Virus record (IMG/VR): IMGVR_UViG_2529293063_000017
DNA from: a virus
Taxonomy: Duplodnaviria; Heunggongvirae; Uroviricota; Caudoviricetes
Reading direction: 5' to 3' (one strand)
Length of the DNA stretch: 39,037 bases
Below the pieces are notes generated by a model that saw only the letters and a program-made list of their open reading frames with translations, was not told where the DNA came from and made no database searches. Positions 1,102 to 8,982 of the stretch are shown here, in pieces (the stretch's first letter is position 1; each line of letters starts with the position of its first letter). The position numbers were made by a program, and so were the translations under genes.

Positions 1102-1422
1102 TCAGCGGGATAATTTTTGGATTGTTTCGGTTGAAACGCGATCTCCCTCCGAATTGCAGGAACCATCAAGAGAGAGAGCCGGAGAAATTTGCCCGACCTC
1201 CGGCATCGTTTCATCTGTTGATAACCAATAAGCATACTTCTTAAATTTAGGGTGTTTCGTAACCTTAAGTAAGGCACCCTCTGTTACTTGCTTCCCCCTC
1301 ACCTCATAGTTAGTTACCGTCCCATAAGGCAGCCCAACACAATCCGCAAACTCCTGGCGGGTCATACCTTCTGCTTCACGAATCAGGCGAAATTTTTCCC
1401 CCATGCTTGACAAAGATGCCAT
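1102..1422 (-). CDS. Immunity repressor, P2 C-like (HTH)
   Basis: Translation ...RQEFADCVGLPYGTVTNYE...KHPKFKKYAYWLSTDETMPEVGQISPALS resembles P2 C; divergent from cox. Start is ambiguous between ATGs at 1422, 1431 and 1440. Confidence 0.8.
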   Translation of the reverse strand: MASLSSMGEKFRLIREAEGMTRQEFADCVGLPYGTVTNYEVRGKQVTEGALLKVTKHPKFKKYAYWLSTDETMPEVGQISPALSLDGSCNSEGDRVSTETIQKLSR

Positions 1423-1535
1423 ATCGGGCATATCCTCCATCGCAACATGCCACATCGGGCACAAACATAAAAACACTCAAATAAGCCGATATAAGCCATT
1501 TTGAGCCATTCGAACGAATTAGGGAGATTACCACA
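1423..1535. promoter_or_regulatory. Divergent early promoter/operator region (Pc/Pe-type lysis-lysogeny switch)
   Basis: Intergenic region between divergently oriented C and cox, the arrangement that carries the face-to-face promoters in P2; individual -10/-35 boxes not resolved. Confidence 0.5.
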
Positions 1536-2288: not shown

Positions 2289-2630
2289 ATGAAACAGCAA
2301 CGTAATTCACGCTTTCGCAATGGTGCAGAACGCCACGCTAACCGTTTTGCTACCAGTGCATCACGCAGCAACATCCGCTACAGCCTGAGTGATACACACG
2401 CAACGCCGGATGGCTACCCAGTAAAACAAATCGGCGAGCATGCCTGGCTGATTGAGAAAGCTGGAATCGTGATCCACAAATGCCCACACAATCCGTTTAC
2501 CGGAAACCGCATTTTTGCTCTAAGCAGTGGCGACAATCAGTTCGGGCAGGATTTCACATTATACGAAGCACTTCGCACGGTTGATCGTCTGCTTCGCGGG
2601 CAAAGTTTTATTAAACAGGCTGATTTATAA
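2289..2630 (+). CDS. Hypothetical early-operon protein
   Basis: 113-aa ORF in the co-oriented early block; no family recognised. Confidence 0.55.
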   Translation: MKQQRNSRFRNGAERHANRFATSASRSNIRYSLSDTHATPDGYPVKQIGEHAWLIEKAGIVIHKCPHNPFTGNRIFALSSGDNQFGQDFTLYEALRTVDRLLRGQSFIKQADL

Positions 2631-2640
2631 CAGGTGCTTT

Positions 2641-2928
2641 ATGACCAAAGACCATGCACAAGGTGTATTTATCCGTTTTATTGATTTTCGCGGTGAACTG
2701 TTATTACGTGCATCCGCTATTGACGGAGTGACTCCGGCGGGTAAAAACGGAGCCGACGAAGCCACTTACGTTTATCTGAACGGCACGCGACTGCTTCTGG
2801 AACTTCCGTACCAGACCGTACGAGAAATCATTAGCGAAGCTGAAAAGGCACGCCAGGCTAATGGCGATGAACCCTATATCGAAATTATTTGTATGGATTC
2901 AGAAGCTGAAATACAGAAAGCAGATTAA
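2641..2928 (+). CDS. Hypothetical early-operon protein
   Basis: ATG at 2641 (MTKDHAQGVF...); about 95 aa; tightly packed with neighbours. Confidence 0.55.
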   Translation: MTKDHAQGVFIRFIDFRGELLLRASAIDGVTPAGKNGADEATYVYLNGTRLLLELPYQTVREIISEAEKARQANGDEPYIEIICMDSEAEIQKAD

Positions 2929-2936
2929 AGGGCGTT

Positions 2937-3182
2937 GTGATGGGCAAAGAATATAAAACTCTCATTAACAAAGCACTTGAGCGTTTTTATTTTCGCTTAA
3001 GTGCATCAGGCGCTCATGCTGAACGTGCGGCCCGTGACTCATTGACCAGAGCAATCCGAAGTCTGTATGACGTGGCTTTTTACGCTGATGATCTGGATGC
3101 ACTTAACGAACTTTCCGAGCTGATCTGTGCCGCAGAATGCGGGGAACATATTGAACCGTATAAGCTGGGGAATATCGCATGA
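2937..3182 (+). CDS. Hypothetical early-operon protein
   Basis: 81-aa ORF; its stop overlaps a downstream small ORF (ATGA). Confidence 0.55.
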   Translation: MMGKEYKTLINKALERFYFRLSASGAHAERAARDSLTRAIRSLYDVAFYADDLDALNELSELICAAECGEHIEPYKLGNIA

Positions 3183-3378
3183 GTATATTTATCTCATGGC
3201 TTGTTCTGATTATTTCGGTGGCCTGCGCTATTGGGATTATGCGAATTATTCATTCAATAAAAAAGATTGAACGTTTTTTCACTGGCGAATAACAGAGCAA
3301 ATAAAACCACAGATAAAATAAGAAAATGTAAAAACAATCCGCATTAGCGGAGGTATTCGCACACGCCAAGGAGGCGTA

Positions 3379-3582
3379 ATGGCAATTAAGCATTTTCCTG
3401 TCGTTCGTTTTACCTCCAGAGGGCGTGAATACGAAGTCGACGAACGCCTGATTACCACAATCGACAAACACCGTTCGGAAAAGGATGCACACCACATCTA
3501 CCTCACTGACGGCACTTACTTCTGCGCCACCAACGTGGCGCGGGTGAATCTTATCCGACAGGTACAGGAGCCACGCAGATGA
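3379..3582 (+). CDS. Hypothetical early-operon protein
   Basis: 67-aa ORF preceded by a strong RBS (aaggaggcgtaATG). Confidence 0.6.
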   Translation: MAIKHFPVVRFTSRGREYEVDERLITTIDKHRSEKDAHHIYLTDGTYFCATNVARVNLIRQVQEPRR

Positions 3583-3845
3583 CCATTCTGGACTACATCG
3601 CTACCCATCCGGGTTGTAGCGGCGGAGAAATCGCCGCAGCATTGAATACCCCAACCACAGCCATCAATGCTGAGTTACGCCGACTCTGGCGCGGCGGCTT
3701 AGTCATCAGAACAAACCGCAGCACAGGTGGTCGCGCTCGCAAAGCAGGAGGCCAAGCTTCTTACCACGTAAACCCGATGCCGTTCGGGTGTAGCAATCCA
3801 CTTACTCACATGTTTAACCAGCTACTGAAGGAAACCAGAGCATGA
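3579..3845 (+). CDS. Hypothetical protein, possibly winged-helix DNA-binding
   Basis: 88-aa ORF; start overlaps the previous stop (ATGA), i.e. translational coupling. Confidence 0.55.
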   Translation: MTILDYIATHPGCSGGEIAAALNTPTTAINAELRRLWRGGLVIRTNRSTGGRARKAGGQASYHVNPMPFGCSNPLTHMFNQLLKETRA

Positions 3846-4141: not shown

Positions 4142-4766
4142 GAAACCAGAACATGCACACACAAAAAAACCGCTTGCCATGCCGCAATCAGTCAGGTTAC
4201 ATTTCCGCTGCACCTCACAAAACGGGTGTCGGGTTTCGCAGCCTGCTGACTACACAAGCGCACAACCGCGCCAGCGGTTTTTTTGTGCGTACTGTATTGC
4301 CACGTTTTTTTCGCGTCAGAATTATGGCGGGGCGTACGGGGCCGACTTCGGTCGGGCCGGGTTCTTGTGTAGCCGGTACTGCGAACCTCGTACGTCTCGC
4401 CACCCACAGTTTCGCAGCTCTGGATGGTGAGTTTTCACAACTTACTACACAAGGGGCCACACCATGGCAAACCGCAAACCACACCGCGCTATCGCGGAGC
4501 GTCGTCACATCCAGACTGAAATCAACCGCAGACTTTCCCGCGCATCACGCGTCGCGCAAATCATGCACATCAATATGCTGCATGAGCGCAGCCACGCACT
4601 ATCAAACATTTATTCCGCCTCTGTTTTCAGCTATCTGGCGGATGATCTGCACTAGCTTCAACAGCTCATCCAGCAGCAAAACAAACTCCATTAATTCCTG
4701 TTCCGGGCCTTTCCTGCACCTTGCGGCGGGAGGCCTTCGCACATCTGTAACAAGAGGATTGCCGCA

Positions 4767-5132
4767 ATGATTCTCGCCAACGACTTTCTTGAATACCTGC
4801 TCAACACAGAACGTGATCTTGCCGCTCGCGTGCGTGATCGTTATGACATGTACCTGAAATCCCTGCCTGTACCGCAGCTCGCTGACGGAAAGATTGTTAT
4901 TGATGGTCGCTACATGATTGACAGCCACGAGGGAAATTACAGGCTTTACCGCATTGAAGGTGGCACCCCGTCCGTTATTGGCATTTACCAGCGCCCATCC
5001 TCTGCAATCGTCGATGTGATTGCCGACAGCATCCGCATCACACATCGCCATGCCGACACAGAAGACACCGTGCTGGAAATTCAGCGGCTGGCTACAGTCT
5101 GCCGCGACACCCTGAATGGCATGTCGAAGTAA
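4767..5132 (+). CDS. Hypothetical protein immediately upstream of replication gene A
   Basis: 121-aa ORF with RBS (aagaggattgccgcaATG); ends 6 bp before the A start. Confidence 0.6.
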   Translation: MILANDFLEYLLNTERDLAARVRDRYDMYLKSLPVPQLADGKIVIDGRYMIDSHEGNYRLYRIEGGTPSVIGIYQRPSSAIVDVIADSIRITHRHADTEDTVLEIQRLATVCRDTLNGMSK

Positions 5133-5138
5133 ATCACT

Positions 5139-7946
5139 ATGACGGCAGAGTACATCAGGGACTGGCAACAACCGCGCCACGCAGTGGGGCGTGAAGGAAC
5201 GGGGATCCCCGCTCCTGAATCCGCGCTTTCCTCCTGGCTGGATGCCTACCGGGTAGAGAACGAGCGCTGCCAGGAAATGGCTGATGCGGCGTTCTCCGCA
5301 ACGCCGCTGGGCAACCTGATTAATAAAAGCCTGGACGCACAGGAAAAACAGGACAAAACCATCACACTGGCAGGAGACGCCAGAAAACAGGCACGCGGCG
5401 CGGTGGATGAAGCCATGGCTTCGCTGCGCCTGCTGCCGTCCTATCTGCGCGATCCGCTTATTCGCCACCTCTCCTTCCTGCGCAAAAAACAGGAAGCCGA
5501 TCGTCAGAAAGGCAAAAAGAGCTGGCAGGCTGAACGCTACGCGCGCGGAAACCTGCGCAAAATATTCGAACGTCTGGAGCGCACCGATCACCGCTGGCTG
5601 ACACAGGGTTATCGCTCCCTTGCCGGACGCGAACGCCTGGATGATTTGCTTTACCTGCCGCAGCTCAACCAGCACCAGATACAGACGCTGGCCACCATGA
5701 CGGCGGCGATGTTCAGCAGCACCTTCGAAAAACTCTGCGATGGCTTTGGCGCGACCGATGGCGAACTGACCATGGATGTAACGCTGAAGGCGTATCAGAT
5801 GCTGGCCCGCATGGCGTTACACCTGCACGCCATGCCGCCACATTACGAAGCTCTGAACAAGAGCGATCCGGATACGGAACTGTTACCGGGCGCAATCCTT
5901 CGCCTGACCTGTGCGGAATGGTGGAAACGCAAACTGTGGCTGTTACGTTGCGAGTGGCGGGAAGAACAACTCCGCGCCGCCTGTCTGGTTTCCAGAAAAA
6001 CATCGCCCTATCTGAGCCAGGACGCGTTAAGCGAGTTTCGCGCACAGCGCGAGAAAACACGCGATTTCCTGAAAAGTTTCATGCTGGAAAACGAAGACGG
6101 GTTCACGATTGATCTCGAGACAGTGTATTACGCGGGAGTAAGTAACCCGGTTCACCGTAAGGCAGAAATGATGGCCACCATGAAGGGGCTGGAACTTCTG
6201 GCCGAAGCCCGTGGCGACAAAGCGGTGTTTCTGACCATCACCTGCCCGTCAAAATACCACGCCACAACAGAGAACGGTCATCCGAATCCCAAATGGAACG
6301 GGGCCACCATGCGCGACTCCAGCGATTACCTGGTTAACACGTTTTTTGCGGCGGTCCGCAAGAAACTGAACCGCGACGGCCTGCGCTGGTATGGCATCCG
6401 CACGGTGGAGCCTCACCATGACGGCACCGTGCACTGGCATATGATGGTCTTTGCTCATCCGGAAGAAATCGACACCATTGTGTCCCACACCCGCGATATT
6501 GCCATTCAGGAAGATCGTCACGAGCTGGGTGATGATATTACCCCACGCTTTAAGGCGGAGTACGTCGACGGCTCAAAAGGCACGCCAACCAGCTACATCG
6601 CCACCTACATCGGAAAGAACCTGGACAGCCGCGCCGTAGATGGCATCGACCCGAAAACGGGCAAGCCACGCGTTGACCACGAAACCGGAAAATCAATGGC
6701 CGAGAGCGTGGAACGCGCCATCGGCTGGGCGCGCCTTCACCGTGTCCGCCAGTTCCAGTTCTTTGGTATCCCCTCCCGTCAGGTGTGGCGTGAACTCCGC
6801 CGCCTTGCCAGCCAGATGGCACGCAACCCGGAAGGCCCGCAACGGCTGAAGGATGACGCAATGGATGCGGTACTCGCTGCCGCTGATGCCGGATGTTTTG
6901 CCACCTACATAGAGAAACAGGGCGGCGTACTTGTTCCACGCCAAGACTACCTGATTCGCACCGCCTACGACCTCGCAGATGAGCTGAACGATTACGGCGA
7001 ACAGAGCGTACAGATTTACGGGATCTGGTCGCCGCTCATCGGGGAGTCTTCCCGCGTATGCACGCATCCGGATAACTGGAAGCTGGTAAGACGCAAACCG
7101 GAAGCGGAAGACAGCTCCCACGAAAATGGTTTTGACCTTCAGGGCGGCCCTGCCGCCCCTTGGACTCGTGGCAATAACTGTCCCCGTGTACAGGAAACGG
7201 ACAACAACGGGACAGAACAGCCGGAAGAACGGCCAGCACCGTGGCCGCAGCTTCCTGACGGCGTTGACGTGAATGAATGGATGCGCTCACTGAAACGGCA
7301 CGAACGCCGGGCGCTGATGCGTTCGCTGCGTGACAAACAGGCAAAAAACAGCAGTGATGAAATGCAGAACTGGACACAGAGCCGCAAACAGCCACAGCCT
7401 TTGCCTGATAACCACGAGTTACTCGCTAAAGAATGGCGGGAGTCTGCTGAATCTCTCGGCCTGCATATCGGTGAACAGCAGATGCAGCACCTGTTACGGG
7501 GCGGCAGTCTGTACGTTGACGGCAGCATCATTGCACCGCAGGGATTTGAAATTGTACGCAAACCGGATACCCGCCCGGACAGCCGAATCACGCAGCTCTG
7601 GCAACGCCTGAGTCGTAATCACGGCGTAAGCAGCACGGAGATCCGCCATAACCCGGTCGCCAGCTATCTGGAACAACTAGAGGCATCAGACCCTGAAGCC
7701 GCCGCACGCCTGGCATCCACACTTCAGCAAGACCAGAACACCATGAAAACACCAGTTACCGTACTTTCTGACATGCTGCGCGCCATCCGCGACGCAGAGC
7801 ACGCACAGAGAATCAGTGAAACCACTGAACGCGCCCGCCGCAAAGCAGACCTGCTGCGGGGTGGCCTGAGCAGTGGAAACAAAAAACAGACAAAAACGGG
7901 ATTCACAAATCCCGTAAATGAGCAAAAAACGCGCCGCGATATATGA
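5139..7946 (+). CDS. A: Replication initiation endonuclease (P2 gpA-like, rolling-circle)
   Basis: 935 aa; contains a ...VHWHMMVFAH... histidine motif and ...SYIATYIGKN... paired-tyrosine motif typical of gpA-family initiators; the C-terminal part is longer than I recall for P2 gpA. Confidence 0.9.
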   Translation: MTAEYIRDWQQPRHAVGREGTGIPAPESALSSWLDAYRVENERCQEMADAAFSATPLGNLINKSLDAQEKQDKTITLAGDARKQARGAVDEAMASLRLLPSYLRDPLIRHLSFLRKKQEADRQKGKKSWQAERYARGNLRKIFERLERTDHRWLTQGYRSLAGRERLDDLLYLPQLNQHQIQTLATMTAAMFSSTFEKLCDGFGATDGELTMDVTLKAYQMLARMALHLHAMPPHYEALNKSDPDTELLPGAILRLTCAEWWKRKLWLLRCEWREEQLRAACLVSRKTSPYLSQDALSEFRAQREKTRDFLKSFMLENEDGFTIDLETVYYAGVSNPVHRKAEMMATMKGLELLAEARGDKAVFLTITCPSKYHATTENGHPNPKWNGATMRDSSDYLVNTFFAAVRKKLNRDGLRWYGIRTVEPHHDGTVHWHMMVFAHPEEIDTIVSHTRDIAIQEDRHELGDDITPRFKAEYVDGSKGTPTSYIATYIGKNLDSRAVDGIDPKTGKPRVDHETGKSMAESVERAIGWARLHRVRQFQFFGIPSRQVWRELRRLASQMARNPEGPQRLKDDAMDAVLAAADAGCFATYIEKQGGVLVPRQDYLIRTAYDLADELNDYGEQSVQIYGIWSPLIGESSRVCTHPDNWKLVRRKPEAEDSSHENGFDLQGGPAAPWTRGNNCPRVQETDNNGTEQPEERPAPWPQLPDGVDVNEWMRSLKRHERRALMRSLRDKQAKNSSDEMQNWTQSRKQPQPLPDNHELLAKEWRESAESLGLHIGEQQMQHLLRGGSLYVDGSIIAPQGFEIVRKPDTRPDSRITQLWQRLSRNHGVSSTEIRHNPVASYLEQLEASDPEAAARLASTLQQDQNTMKTPVTVLSDMLRAIRDAEHAQRISETTERARRKADLLRGGLSSGNKKQTKTGFTNPVNEQKTRRDI

Positions 7947-8022: not shown

Positions 8023-8982
8023 ATGAAAATTTGTATCGACGACGGCTCCACCAACATCAAGCTGGCATGGACTGAGAACGGCGAATGCCGCAACGCCATC
8101 AGCCCGAACAGCTTCAAGTCGGAATGGTCTGCGCCGTTCGGTGTCACGCAGCCCGCGAACTACATGCTTGATGGCGTGCGCTATGGTTTTGATCCGGTCA
8201 GCGATCGCTTTGTCCAGACGACCGACACGCAATACCAGTACAGCGATGTGAATGTCATTGCCATTCATCACGCGCTGGTCAAATCAGGCATCACGCCACA
8301 GGAAGTGGATGTGGTTGTCACCCTGCCACTGAGCGAGTATTTCGACACAAACGCACAGCCGGATATGACCAACATCAACCGCAAAAAAGCGAACGTCATG
8401 CGCCCGGTGGAGTACCAGAACGGTGAGGCATTCACTATCCGTAACGTGCGGGTTATGCCTGAATCCATTCCGGCTGGCTTTAAGGCACTGGCTAACATGA
8501 GTCCGTTTGAATCCCTGCTGATTGTGGATTTAGGCGGAACCACGCTGGATGTGGCAAAGGTTCAGGGGCAACTGGCAGGTATCAGCCAGGTGTTTTGCGA
8601 TCCACACGTAGGCGTTTCTCTGATGGCCGATGCCGTACTGTCGGTGATGGCCACTAACGGTATGCGCACCAGTCACCACATCGCCAATACCATTATCGAA
8701 CATCGCCATGATGAAGCCTGGCTGCGCCAGCACATCCACAATGACGCGCATTACGCCAGCCTGATGGCGGTTATTCGTGAAAAGGAAGAAACACTGAAAC
8801 AACGCGTGATCCGCGCGCTGGCGGTTTTTTCGGGTTACGGGCGGGTGATGGTTGTCGGTGGCGGGGCGGAGATTGTGGCACCCGCTATCCGCGAAGCCTG
8901 CGGAGTTAATGCGACTTTCATCGCGGACGGGGTGCCACAGTTTGCTCTGGTTAATGGGCTGTACGCAATGGACAAGGAGTAA
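8023..8982 (+). CDS. parM: ParM/StbA-like actin-type segregation ATPase
   Basis: 319 aa; N-terminus MKICIDDGSTNIKLAW...ISPNSFKSEW...QYSDVNVIAIHHAL closely matches the plasmid R1 ParM N-terminal region as I recall it. Confidence 0.8.
   Translation: MKICIDDGSTNIKLAWTENGECRNAISPNSFKSEWSAPFGVTQPANYMLDGVRYGFDPVSDRFVQTTDTQYQYSDVNVIAIHHALVKSGITPQEVDVVVTLPLSEYFDTNAQPDMTNINRKKANVMRPVEYQNGEAFTIRNVRVMPESIPAGFKALANMSPFESLLIVDLGGTTLDVAKVQGQLAGISQVFCDPHVGVSLMADAVLSVMATNGMRTSHHIANTIIEHRHDEAWLRQHIHNDAHYASLMAVIREKEETLKQRVIRALAVFSGYGRVMVVGGGAEIVAPAIREACGVNATFIADGVPQFALVNGLYAMDKE

Follow-up and report, generated by a model that had tools for sequence, protein, structure and literature searches.

A probable P4/P1-type antisense-RNA immunity cassette in the early operon of a P88-like prophage

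The early operon of the tailed-phage record IMGVR_UViG_2529293063_000017 (Caudoviricetes; 39,037 nucleotides, referred to in its entirety as the window) contains, among otherwise tightly packed genes, an interval of about 620 bp at positions 4142-4766, which a first-pass annotation made from the letters alone had proposed to be a non-coding RNA or a cis-acting element. This guess is borne out by the presence in the interval of matches above gathering score to two RNA families, isrK and C4, accompanied by short elements that co-vary. In our estimation, with a probability of roughly 80%, what the interval holds is an antisense-RNA immunity cassette of the P4/P1 type, carried by a P88-like (P2-like) prophage within its early operon. 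This is a real and strongly supported regulatory RNA locus of a kind that is well known (CI and seqA in P4, c4 in P1, IsrK in Gifsy-1) and detectable with standard Rfam models. Its novelty is limited to the setting in helper-type P88-like phages, the compact overlap of an epsilon-like gene with an Eta-like frame and the diversity of its alleles.

The core of the cassette consists of two RNAs encoded one after the other on the plus strand. The upstream one, an IsrK/P4 seqA-like leader RNA at 4210-4284, is a full-length match to RF01394 (61.9 bits for a cut-off of 50) and is laid out as hairpin 1 (4210-4229), hairpin 2 (4230-4245), a target element that we call b1 and finally an intrinsic terminator. 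Its helices are 99-100% paired among 32 distinct related sequences, the sample used for all pairing statistics, in which counts are of sequences and not of independent events, though a dozen alleles are involved. The downstream one, a C4/P4 CI-like antisense RNA at 4320-4407, matches RF01695 with 83.2 bits (cut-off 45) over model positions 1-87 of 87, and has a 17-bp closing stem (4325-4341/4386-4402) around two inner hairpins, the 27 pairs of its stems being 100% paired with four compensatory changes. These are the two families already equated with P4 immunity determinants, isrK with seqA and C4 with the CI immunity RNA (PMC3632133, PMC10111431). The leader is also overlapped by a sub-threshold match to c4-a1b1 (19.9 bits for a cut-off of 46.7), while matches to STnc410 and Ms_IGR-4, far below gathering score, were taken as chance.

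The two RNAs are linked to each other, and to the gene that follows, by six short elements. The window contains three exact copies of CTACACAAG, at 4250-4258 and 4445-4453 on the plus strand and at 4364-4372 on the minus strand, all of them within 204 bp; with one mismatch allowed, the count in the window is at chance level. The first-pass annotation had noticed all three, with coordinates off by one base, and had missed a second set consisting of TTCGCAG at 4235-4241 and 4411-4417 and its complement CTGCGAA at 4379-4385. Read from the sequence, these two sets are the antisense and target elements of a single system, which we designate a1, a' and a2 (the 7-mers) and b1, b' and b2 (the 9-mers). 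Read along the plus strand, (i) a1 (4235-4241) sits in the loop of leader hairpin 2 and is complementary to a', (ii) b1 (4250-4258) follows it and is complementary to b', (iii) b' (4364-4372, CUUGUGUAG), the inverted 9-mer of the first-pass annotation, lies in the loop of the second inner C4 hairpin, (iv) a' (4379-4385, CUGCGAA in the RNA) lies in the single-stranded C4 junction, (v) a2 (4411-4417) is the downstream partner of a' and (vi) b2 (4445-4453), the downstream partner of b', overlaps with its 3' end a Shine-Dalgarno sequence, AAGGGG at 4451-4456, and thus extends into the ribosome-binding site of the gene that comes next.

Evidence that these elements pair with each other comes from the way in which they change together. 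Seventy P88-like sequences (the window and 69 other loci, mostly viral contigs) contain 12 a'/b' alleles, in which a and b types reassort, and the six elements co-vary across all 12 so that pairing persists. Both the seven pairs of a1 with a' and the seven of a' with a2 are 100% maintained with four compensatory pairs each, the nine of b1 with b' are 100% maintained with six, and pairing of b' with b2 stands at 96.9% with five, other alleles displaying (A/C/G)AGAGG at the position shared by b2 and the Shine-Dalgarno sequence. When partners are slid by one to three columns as a control, pairing falls to 33-49%. The same picture emerges from an alignment of the window with phage P88 and Citrobacter phage Shae_phiSM, where near-identical flanks surround three different a/b sets, each of which is still mutually complementary, and from the energy of the duplex between C4 and its targets, which averages about -34.5 kcal/mol for cognate versus about -24.5 kcal/mol for non-cognate combinations. 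Variation per column, computed like the frame statistics below on 47 distinct related sequences, is restricted to the six elements, leaving an A-tract, the -35 and -10 hexamers, the terminator and the RNA scaffold invariant. The RNA family search and the covariation analysis that had been suggested as checks have yielded two Rfam families and elements co-varying across 12 alleles. By analogy with known systems, the allelic a/b elements would set immunity specificity, and the existence of at least 12 reassorting specificity alleles offers a ready natural set of orthogonal RNA-RNA regulators.

Upstream of the leader, a promoter scan finds a sigma-70 promoter-like site on the plus strand (TTGCCA at 4174-4179, an 18-nt spacer and TACATT at 4198-4203), which is preceded by an A-tract resembling an UP element (4163-4169). 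The segment 4162-4210 is almost invariant, transcription is predicted to start near 4210 and the isrK model begins at G4210. By analogy with the P4 promoter PLE (PMC10111431), 4174-4203 is a putative internal promoter. A second promoter-like site at 4297-4325 (TTGCCA-17-AATTAT) is probably not functional, because its -10 hexamer falls in the C4 5' flank, so that transcription would start inside the closing stem, and its -35 hexamer reads TCGCCA in many relatives. At the other end of the leader, the Rho-independent terminator-like hairpin AACCGC-GCCA-GCGGTT followed by seven T (4264-4284, plus strand) is present just as the first-pass annotation had described it, was also found independently of the isrK model by a terminator and promoter scan, has an invariant stem and marks the 3' end of the IsrK-like RNA.

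An inverted counterpart of this terminator, aaaaaaaccgc, had been reported at about 4174; it does exist, at 4163-4173, and is part of a longer complementarity in which 16 of the 17 positions of 4157-4173 can pair with 4274-4290 (the 3' half of the terminator, the U-tract and GUGCGU). In the predicted fold of 4142-4290 this long-range helix dominates (-53.6 kcal/mol, z = -3.8), and its upstream arm is present only if transcription began ahead of the internal promoter. Since both arms are invariant, the helix is beyond the reach of a covariation test. Judging from the sequence, it could be a coincidence imposed by an UP element, a promoter-specific mask of the terminator or a site for RNase III, and the A-tract at 4163-4169 may be no more than an UP element of the promoter.

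Next after C4 comes an open reading frame (ORF) of 63 amino acids (aa) at 4464-4655 on the plus strand. The first-pass annotation had considered that it might be real and had faulted its start context; its homology and the selection acting on it argue that it is a genuine gene, and its start context is in fact good, with the ATG placed 7 nt after AAGGGG. The product matches the Pfam family Derepression (PF25738) with 30.7 bits for a cut-off of 27 (170 bits for P4 epsilon) and is 32% identical to P4 epsilon across 50 residues (E 5e-9), which identifies it by homology as an epsilon-like 'derepression protein', whereas an Icd-like identity was dropped because there is no NCBIfam match and Pfam gives Derepression. 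No relative was found among PDB structures. In the window the gene is truncated by an amber codon, TAG at 4653-4655 in place of the GAG of relatives, which continue to 4694, giving 76 aa; this longer form is encoded by 45 of the 47 distinct sequences and the other two are amber-truncated, with Escherichia coli IHE3034 sharing the TAG. The ratio of non-synonymous to synonymous substitution rates (dN/dS) of the frame is 0.11-0.44 in informative comparisons, the signature of purifying selection. P4 epsilon acts on the P2 C repressor. Since the repressor of the phage in the window is a homologue of P2 C, the product gated by the cassette is plausibly, by this analogy, an anti-repressor. Around and beyond the gene, the RNA is rich in C and poor in G between about 4400 and 4720 (GC skew -0.2 to -0.35) and hence rut-like, and a highly conserved 3' segment (4656-4766, plus strand) leads to the next gene, orf121. 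A hairpin at 4705-4737 was not significant (fold z = -0.89).

The whole cassette is, in addition, spanned by a sense ORF of 205 codons (4153-4770, plus strand), contrary to the initial impression that the gap contains only low-complexity or antisense ORFs. Its ATG at 4153 lies upstream of the -35 hexamer at 4174, and its TGA overlaps the ATG of orf121 (ATGA at 4767-4770). By position and near-threshold family resemblance this ORF is probably the counterpart of P4 eta: it scores 25.0 bits on Pfam Phage_ASH (PF10554; cut-off 26), over residues 16-109 only, which correspond to the RNA region, and P4 Eta belongs to the same family (82.4 bits; 8171-8767 of the P4 locus, minus strand). The frame is open in 42 of the 47 distinct relatives, compared with 5 of 20,000 composition-matched shuffles. 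These properties, the near-threshold Phage_ASH score, matches to PHROG 'transcriptional regulator/repressor' families (E 1e-9 to 4e-15) and the existence of a corresponding coding sequence in RefSeq record NC_049391 would all be accounted for if the locus encoded a genuine 205-aa regulatory protein of the Ash/Eta family, the RNA-model matches being by-products of protein conservation. We consider this decidedly unlikely. In its overlap with the epsilon-like gene, the Eta-like frame shows a dN/dS of 0.8-3.5, against the low values of the epsilon-like frame, and elsewhere it lacks third-position bias, the substitutions that separate P88 or Shae_phiSM from the window in the RNA region included, which means that there is no constraint at the amino-acid level. 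The variable patches co-vary by base-pairing and not by codon, the Phage_ASH match coincides exactly with the region comprising isrK, C4 and the targets, PGAP-style annotations omit the coding sequence or write 'similar to ash family protein', and the immunity factor of P4 is an RNA (PMC10111431, PMC3632133). A conserved protein-coding gene spanning the interval had been named in advance as something that would speak against an RNA locus. The 205-aa ORF formally goes half-way towards this, as it does span the interval, but its frame is without amino-acid constraint and its P4 equivalent coexists with the immunity RNAs (PMC10111431).

This arrangement has consequences for annotation. None of the database records inspected (the RefSeq entries of IHE3034 and P88, PV468777 and NC_049391) has an RNA annotated at the locus. 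Instead, IHE3034 has only a 63-aa 'hypothetical protein', P88 has a minus-strand hypothetical coding sequence and a 'derepression protein', PV468777 has 'similar to ash family protein' and NC_049391 names the 205-aa ORF 'transcriptional regulator'. PHROG transcriptional regulator/repressor families match what is a conceptual translation of the RNA region, and such matches, along with those to Phage_ASH, are a likely source of systematic mis-annotation, protein-only pipelines misreading an RNA cassette.

How might an antisense-RNA immunity cassette of this design work? On an anatomy, a homology and a covariation that are observed here, we infer the following steps from P4, P1 and Gifsy-1. The internal promoter at 4174-4203 would be constitutive in a lysogen and would produce a short leader RNA as well as some read-through transcript, from which a stable C4-like RNA would be released by processing (by RNase P in P1 and P4). 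Pairing of C4 with a1 and b1 would favour early termination, while its pairing with a2 and b2 would occlude the ribosome-binding site of the epsilon-like gene and block translation. The untranslated C-rich RNA would then be exposed to Rho, and the epsilon-like gene, orf121 and the replication gene gpA would be off for transcripts issued from the internal promoter. Transcripts from a lytic early promoter further upstream would, on the other hand, carry the ATG at 4153, and ribosomes travelling on the Eta-like frame would make them insensitive to the RNA, this translation being coupled into orf121 through the ATGA overlap. There is a precedent in P4, where, according to the published account (PMC10111431), full-length eta is translated only from the upstream promoter and such translation stops termination. 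Positioned just ahead of the replication gene in a prophage that about 24% of complete E. coli genomes carry (see below), an epsilon-like anti-repressor under RNA control would add a second layer of immunity or induction.

Several observations weigh against this interpretation: (i) the internal promoter is a match to consensus only, at 9 of 12 positions, (ii) C4 is not directly followed by an in-frame kil, whereas P4 has kil nested in eta, (iii) the premature amber codon may impair epsilon-like output in the strain from which the window comes, (iv) the Eta-like frame falls just under the Pfam cut-off, (v) the same frame is broken in four to five of the 47 natural variants, so that translation through the cassette is not indispensable, (vi) processing, action in trans, the involvement of Rho and epsilon-like activity are all drawn by analogy from the better-known systems and (vii) the short IsrK RNA of Gifsy-1 activates and does not repress (PMC4825925), which makes the sign of the leader's effect in trans uncertain.

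In another possible interpretation, the cassette would serve chiefly to switch on induction, as Gifsy-1 IsrK does, and not as an immunity that maintains lysogeny, the short leader titrating or remodelling the read-through transcript and C4, thereby turning on the epsilon-like anti-repressor, inactivating the P2 C-type repressor and inducing the prophage independently of the SOS response. In keeping with such a switch, the isrK match is at gathering score, an anti-repressor-type protein is directly gated and the phage has a P2 C-type repressor. Moreover, the minimum-energy fold of 4210-4470, which speaks for the immunity cassette as well, pairs a1 and b1 with a' and b' in cis (z = -3.7), an arrangement reminiscent of the inactive 'structure A' described for the IsrK transcript (PMC4825925), and P88 and PhiSM have been found to be released spontaneously or after mitomycin C (PMC5285337, PMC6456863). 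We nevertheless regard it as unlikely, as the precedents in P4 and P1 are repressive and the epsilon-like gene is truncated in the window; it also differs from the immunity cassette described above in physiological emphasis only, the same anatomy fitting both.

Among known systems, P4 has the same layout as the cassette. P4 itself has isrK (60.8 bits) and C4 (74.9 bits) in the same order as the window, upstream of epsilon, and the likeness includes (i) both Rfam families on one strand ahead of an epsilon homologue (seqA, CI RNA, seqC, epsilon), (ii) a two-part complementarity with upstream and downstream targets, the downstream one reaching into the ribosome-binding site of the gene translated first, (iii) a long ORF (Ash/Eta in P4, its candidate counterpart in the window) running over the RNAs from a start upstream of the internal promoter (PLE in P4) and (iv) multiple specificity alleles. 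There are also differences. The element in the window is a whole P2-like phage equipped with a C/Cox switch and gpA, whereas P4 is a satellite with the alpha primase; its epsilon-like gene begins 57 nt after C4, in another frame, and is fully overlapped by the Eta-like frame; the epsilon-like protein, 76 aa in its full form compared with 95 aa in P4, is only 32% identical; and the 17-nt long-range complement of the terminator is not seen in P4. The immI locus of P1 and P7 (P51, a1b1, c4, a2b2, icd, ant) shares the C4 family match, the logic of a' and b' and the targets on both sides (RF01695, RF03163; Weinberg 2010, PMC2864571), and there, too, b2 covers the ribosome-binding site of a small ORF located ahead of an anti-repressor function (PMC2864571). 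However, the leader in the window has an intrinsic terminator and fits isrK better than c4-a1b1, and no Icd-like or Ant homologues were found downstream of C4 (NCBIfam on the 63-aa ORF and orf121, the former being Derepression in Pfam).

The Salmonella prophage Gifsy-1 has the order isrK, orf45/STnc1160, anrP; its IsrK is structurally homologous to seqA, and the RNA that comes after it, STnc1160, is processed (PMC4825925). In the window, too, a terminator-bearing leader of the IsrK type precedes a putative processed RNA reached by read-through, an anti-repressor-type gene comes next and the predicted cis structure pairs the leader with the downstream RNA (PMC4825925), but Gifsy-1 is a lambdoid prophage, its anti-repressor (anrP locus) belongs to a different protein family and the published mechanism, trans-activation by short IsrK, is not established for the window. 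The same isrK and C4 pair is also found in E. coli Stx phages, upstream of an annotated anti-repressor. In one of them, 1720a-02, a coding sequence annotated as 'putative antirepressor' (2441-3304) starts upstream of the isrK and C4 matches (2501-2689) and runs through them, an ORF-over-RNA arrangement as in P4 eta. The early region of P2 has no C4 or isrK match, which implies that the cassette is not a general feature of P2-like phages.

The prophage that harbours the cassette belongs, by sequence identity, to a very common E. coli kind. Around the locus, identity is 99-99.4% with P88-like phages (genus Xuanwuvirus, family Peduoviridae, P2-like) and 92.7% with P88 itself, and the element as a whole matches complete genomes of P88-like phages (34-40 kb) at 99% identity. 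The interval (4142-4766, as well as 4150-4770) is 100% identical to that of E. coli IHE3034. A C-type repressor gene (1102-1476, minus strand), the product of which is 37% identical to P2 C (E 4e-23), a neighbouring Cox gene (Pfam Phage_Cox), small early genes and the replication endonuclease gene gpA together make up a P2-type early region. P2-like phages are textbook examples of repressor/Cox switches and are not SOS-induced.

The cassette is widespread: of 5426 complete E. coli genomes, 1279 (about 24%) have it, 1145 of them with at least 80% coverage, it is also present in Salmonella enterica and E. albertii, and the order isrK, C4, epsilon-like gene is kept in every P88-like cassette locus tested. 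Among 50,697 phage records, the 76-aa protein was found only in nine Xuanwuvirus records. P88-like isrK and C4 with an 89% identical epsilon-like protein were also seen in Vagococcus sp. WN89Y (NZ_JBQPOM010000071.1, 3247-3728), which in view of its Gram-positive label is likely to be contamination or a mislabelled enterobacterial sequence. A P88-like prophage without the cassette exists in E. coli AVS0530 (NZ_CP124345.1, 3471-3616); it has no Ead-like gene and a frameshifted gpA, and retains only the last ~115 nt (window 4655-4770), a remnant of the conserved 3' segment annotated as a partial 'ash family protein', with no C4 or isrK match. This makes the cassette a discrete and dispensable module. 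Its dispensability, left and right boundaries that resemble mosaic junctions and the amber codon in the epsilon-like gene could all suggest that a P4-like satellite module was recombined into a helper-type phage and survives there as an inert remnant or, alternatively, that the interval is an intra-operon attenuator with no trans-acting RNA. Either is most improbable for a cassette of such prevalence, with an invariant promoter and scaffold, six elements that co-vary strictly across the alleles and an epsilon-like gene under purifying selection.

The 80 P4-like loci that were compared have 11 alleles, made of combinations of six b-type and three a-type elements that reassort. Cross-immunity between helper and satellite found no support in this sample, since no a or b allele is common to the P88-like loci and the P4-like loci plus P4; the regular expression used in this comparison missed some P88-like alleles, and the alignment-based P88-like list also shares none with the P4-like set. 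A broader scenario, which we find possible but rather doubtful, is that a P88-like, helper-type lineage took over the RNA immunity and epsilon module of P4 satellites as a multi-allelic, RNA-gated anti-repressor switch directed at P2 C-type repressors (its own or those of rival prophages). This switch would obey a promoter-of-origin logic, with lytic transcripts escaping by Eta-like translation and/or by means of the 17-nt segment 4157-4173 that complements the 3' half and U-tract of the terminator. If true, this would represent a previously undescribed second layer of immunity and induction in P2-like phages.

Downstream, the genes that an antisense-RNA cassette would gate by analogy (4767-7946) are orf121 (4767-5132, plus strand), the first gene after it, to which no function is assigned, and the P2-type replication endonuclease gene gpA (5139-7946, plus strand), identified by Phage_GPA with 436 bits, with phrog_3237 among the matches for the downstream genes. 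The possibility that orf121 is a homologue of P4 ORF151 was rejected (BLASTP E 0.17). The gpA protein of the window is 935 aa long, compared with 761 aa in P2, and the Phage_GPA domain covers only residues 179-498, leaving a long C-terminal part outside it. Directly 3' of gpA lies an ORF (8023-8982) that is named 'plasmid segregation protein ParM' in related records, an unusual cargo for a P2-like phage.

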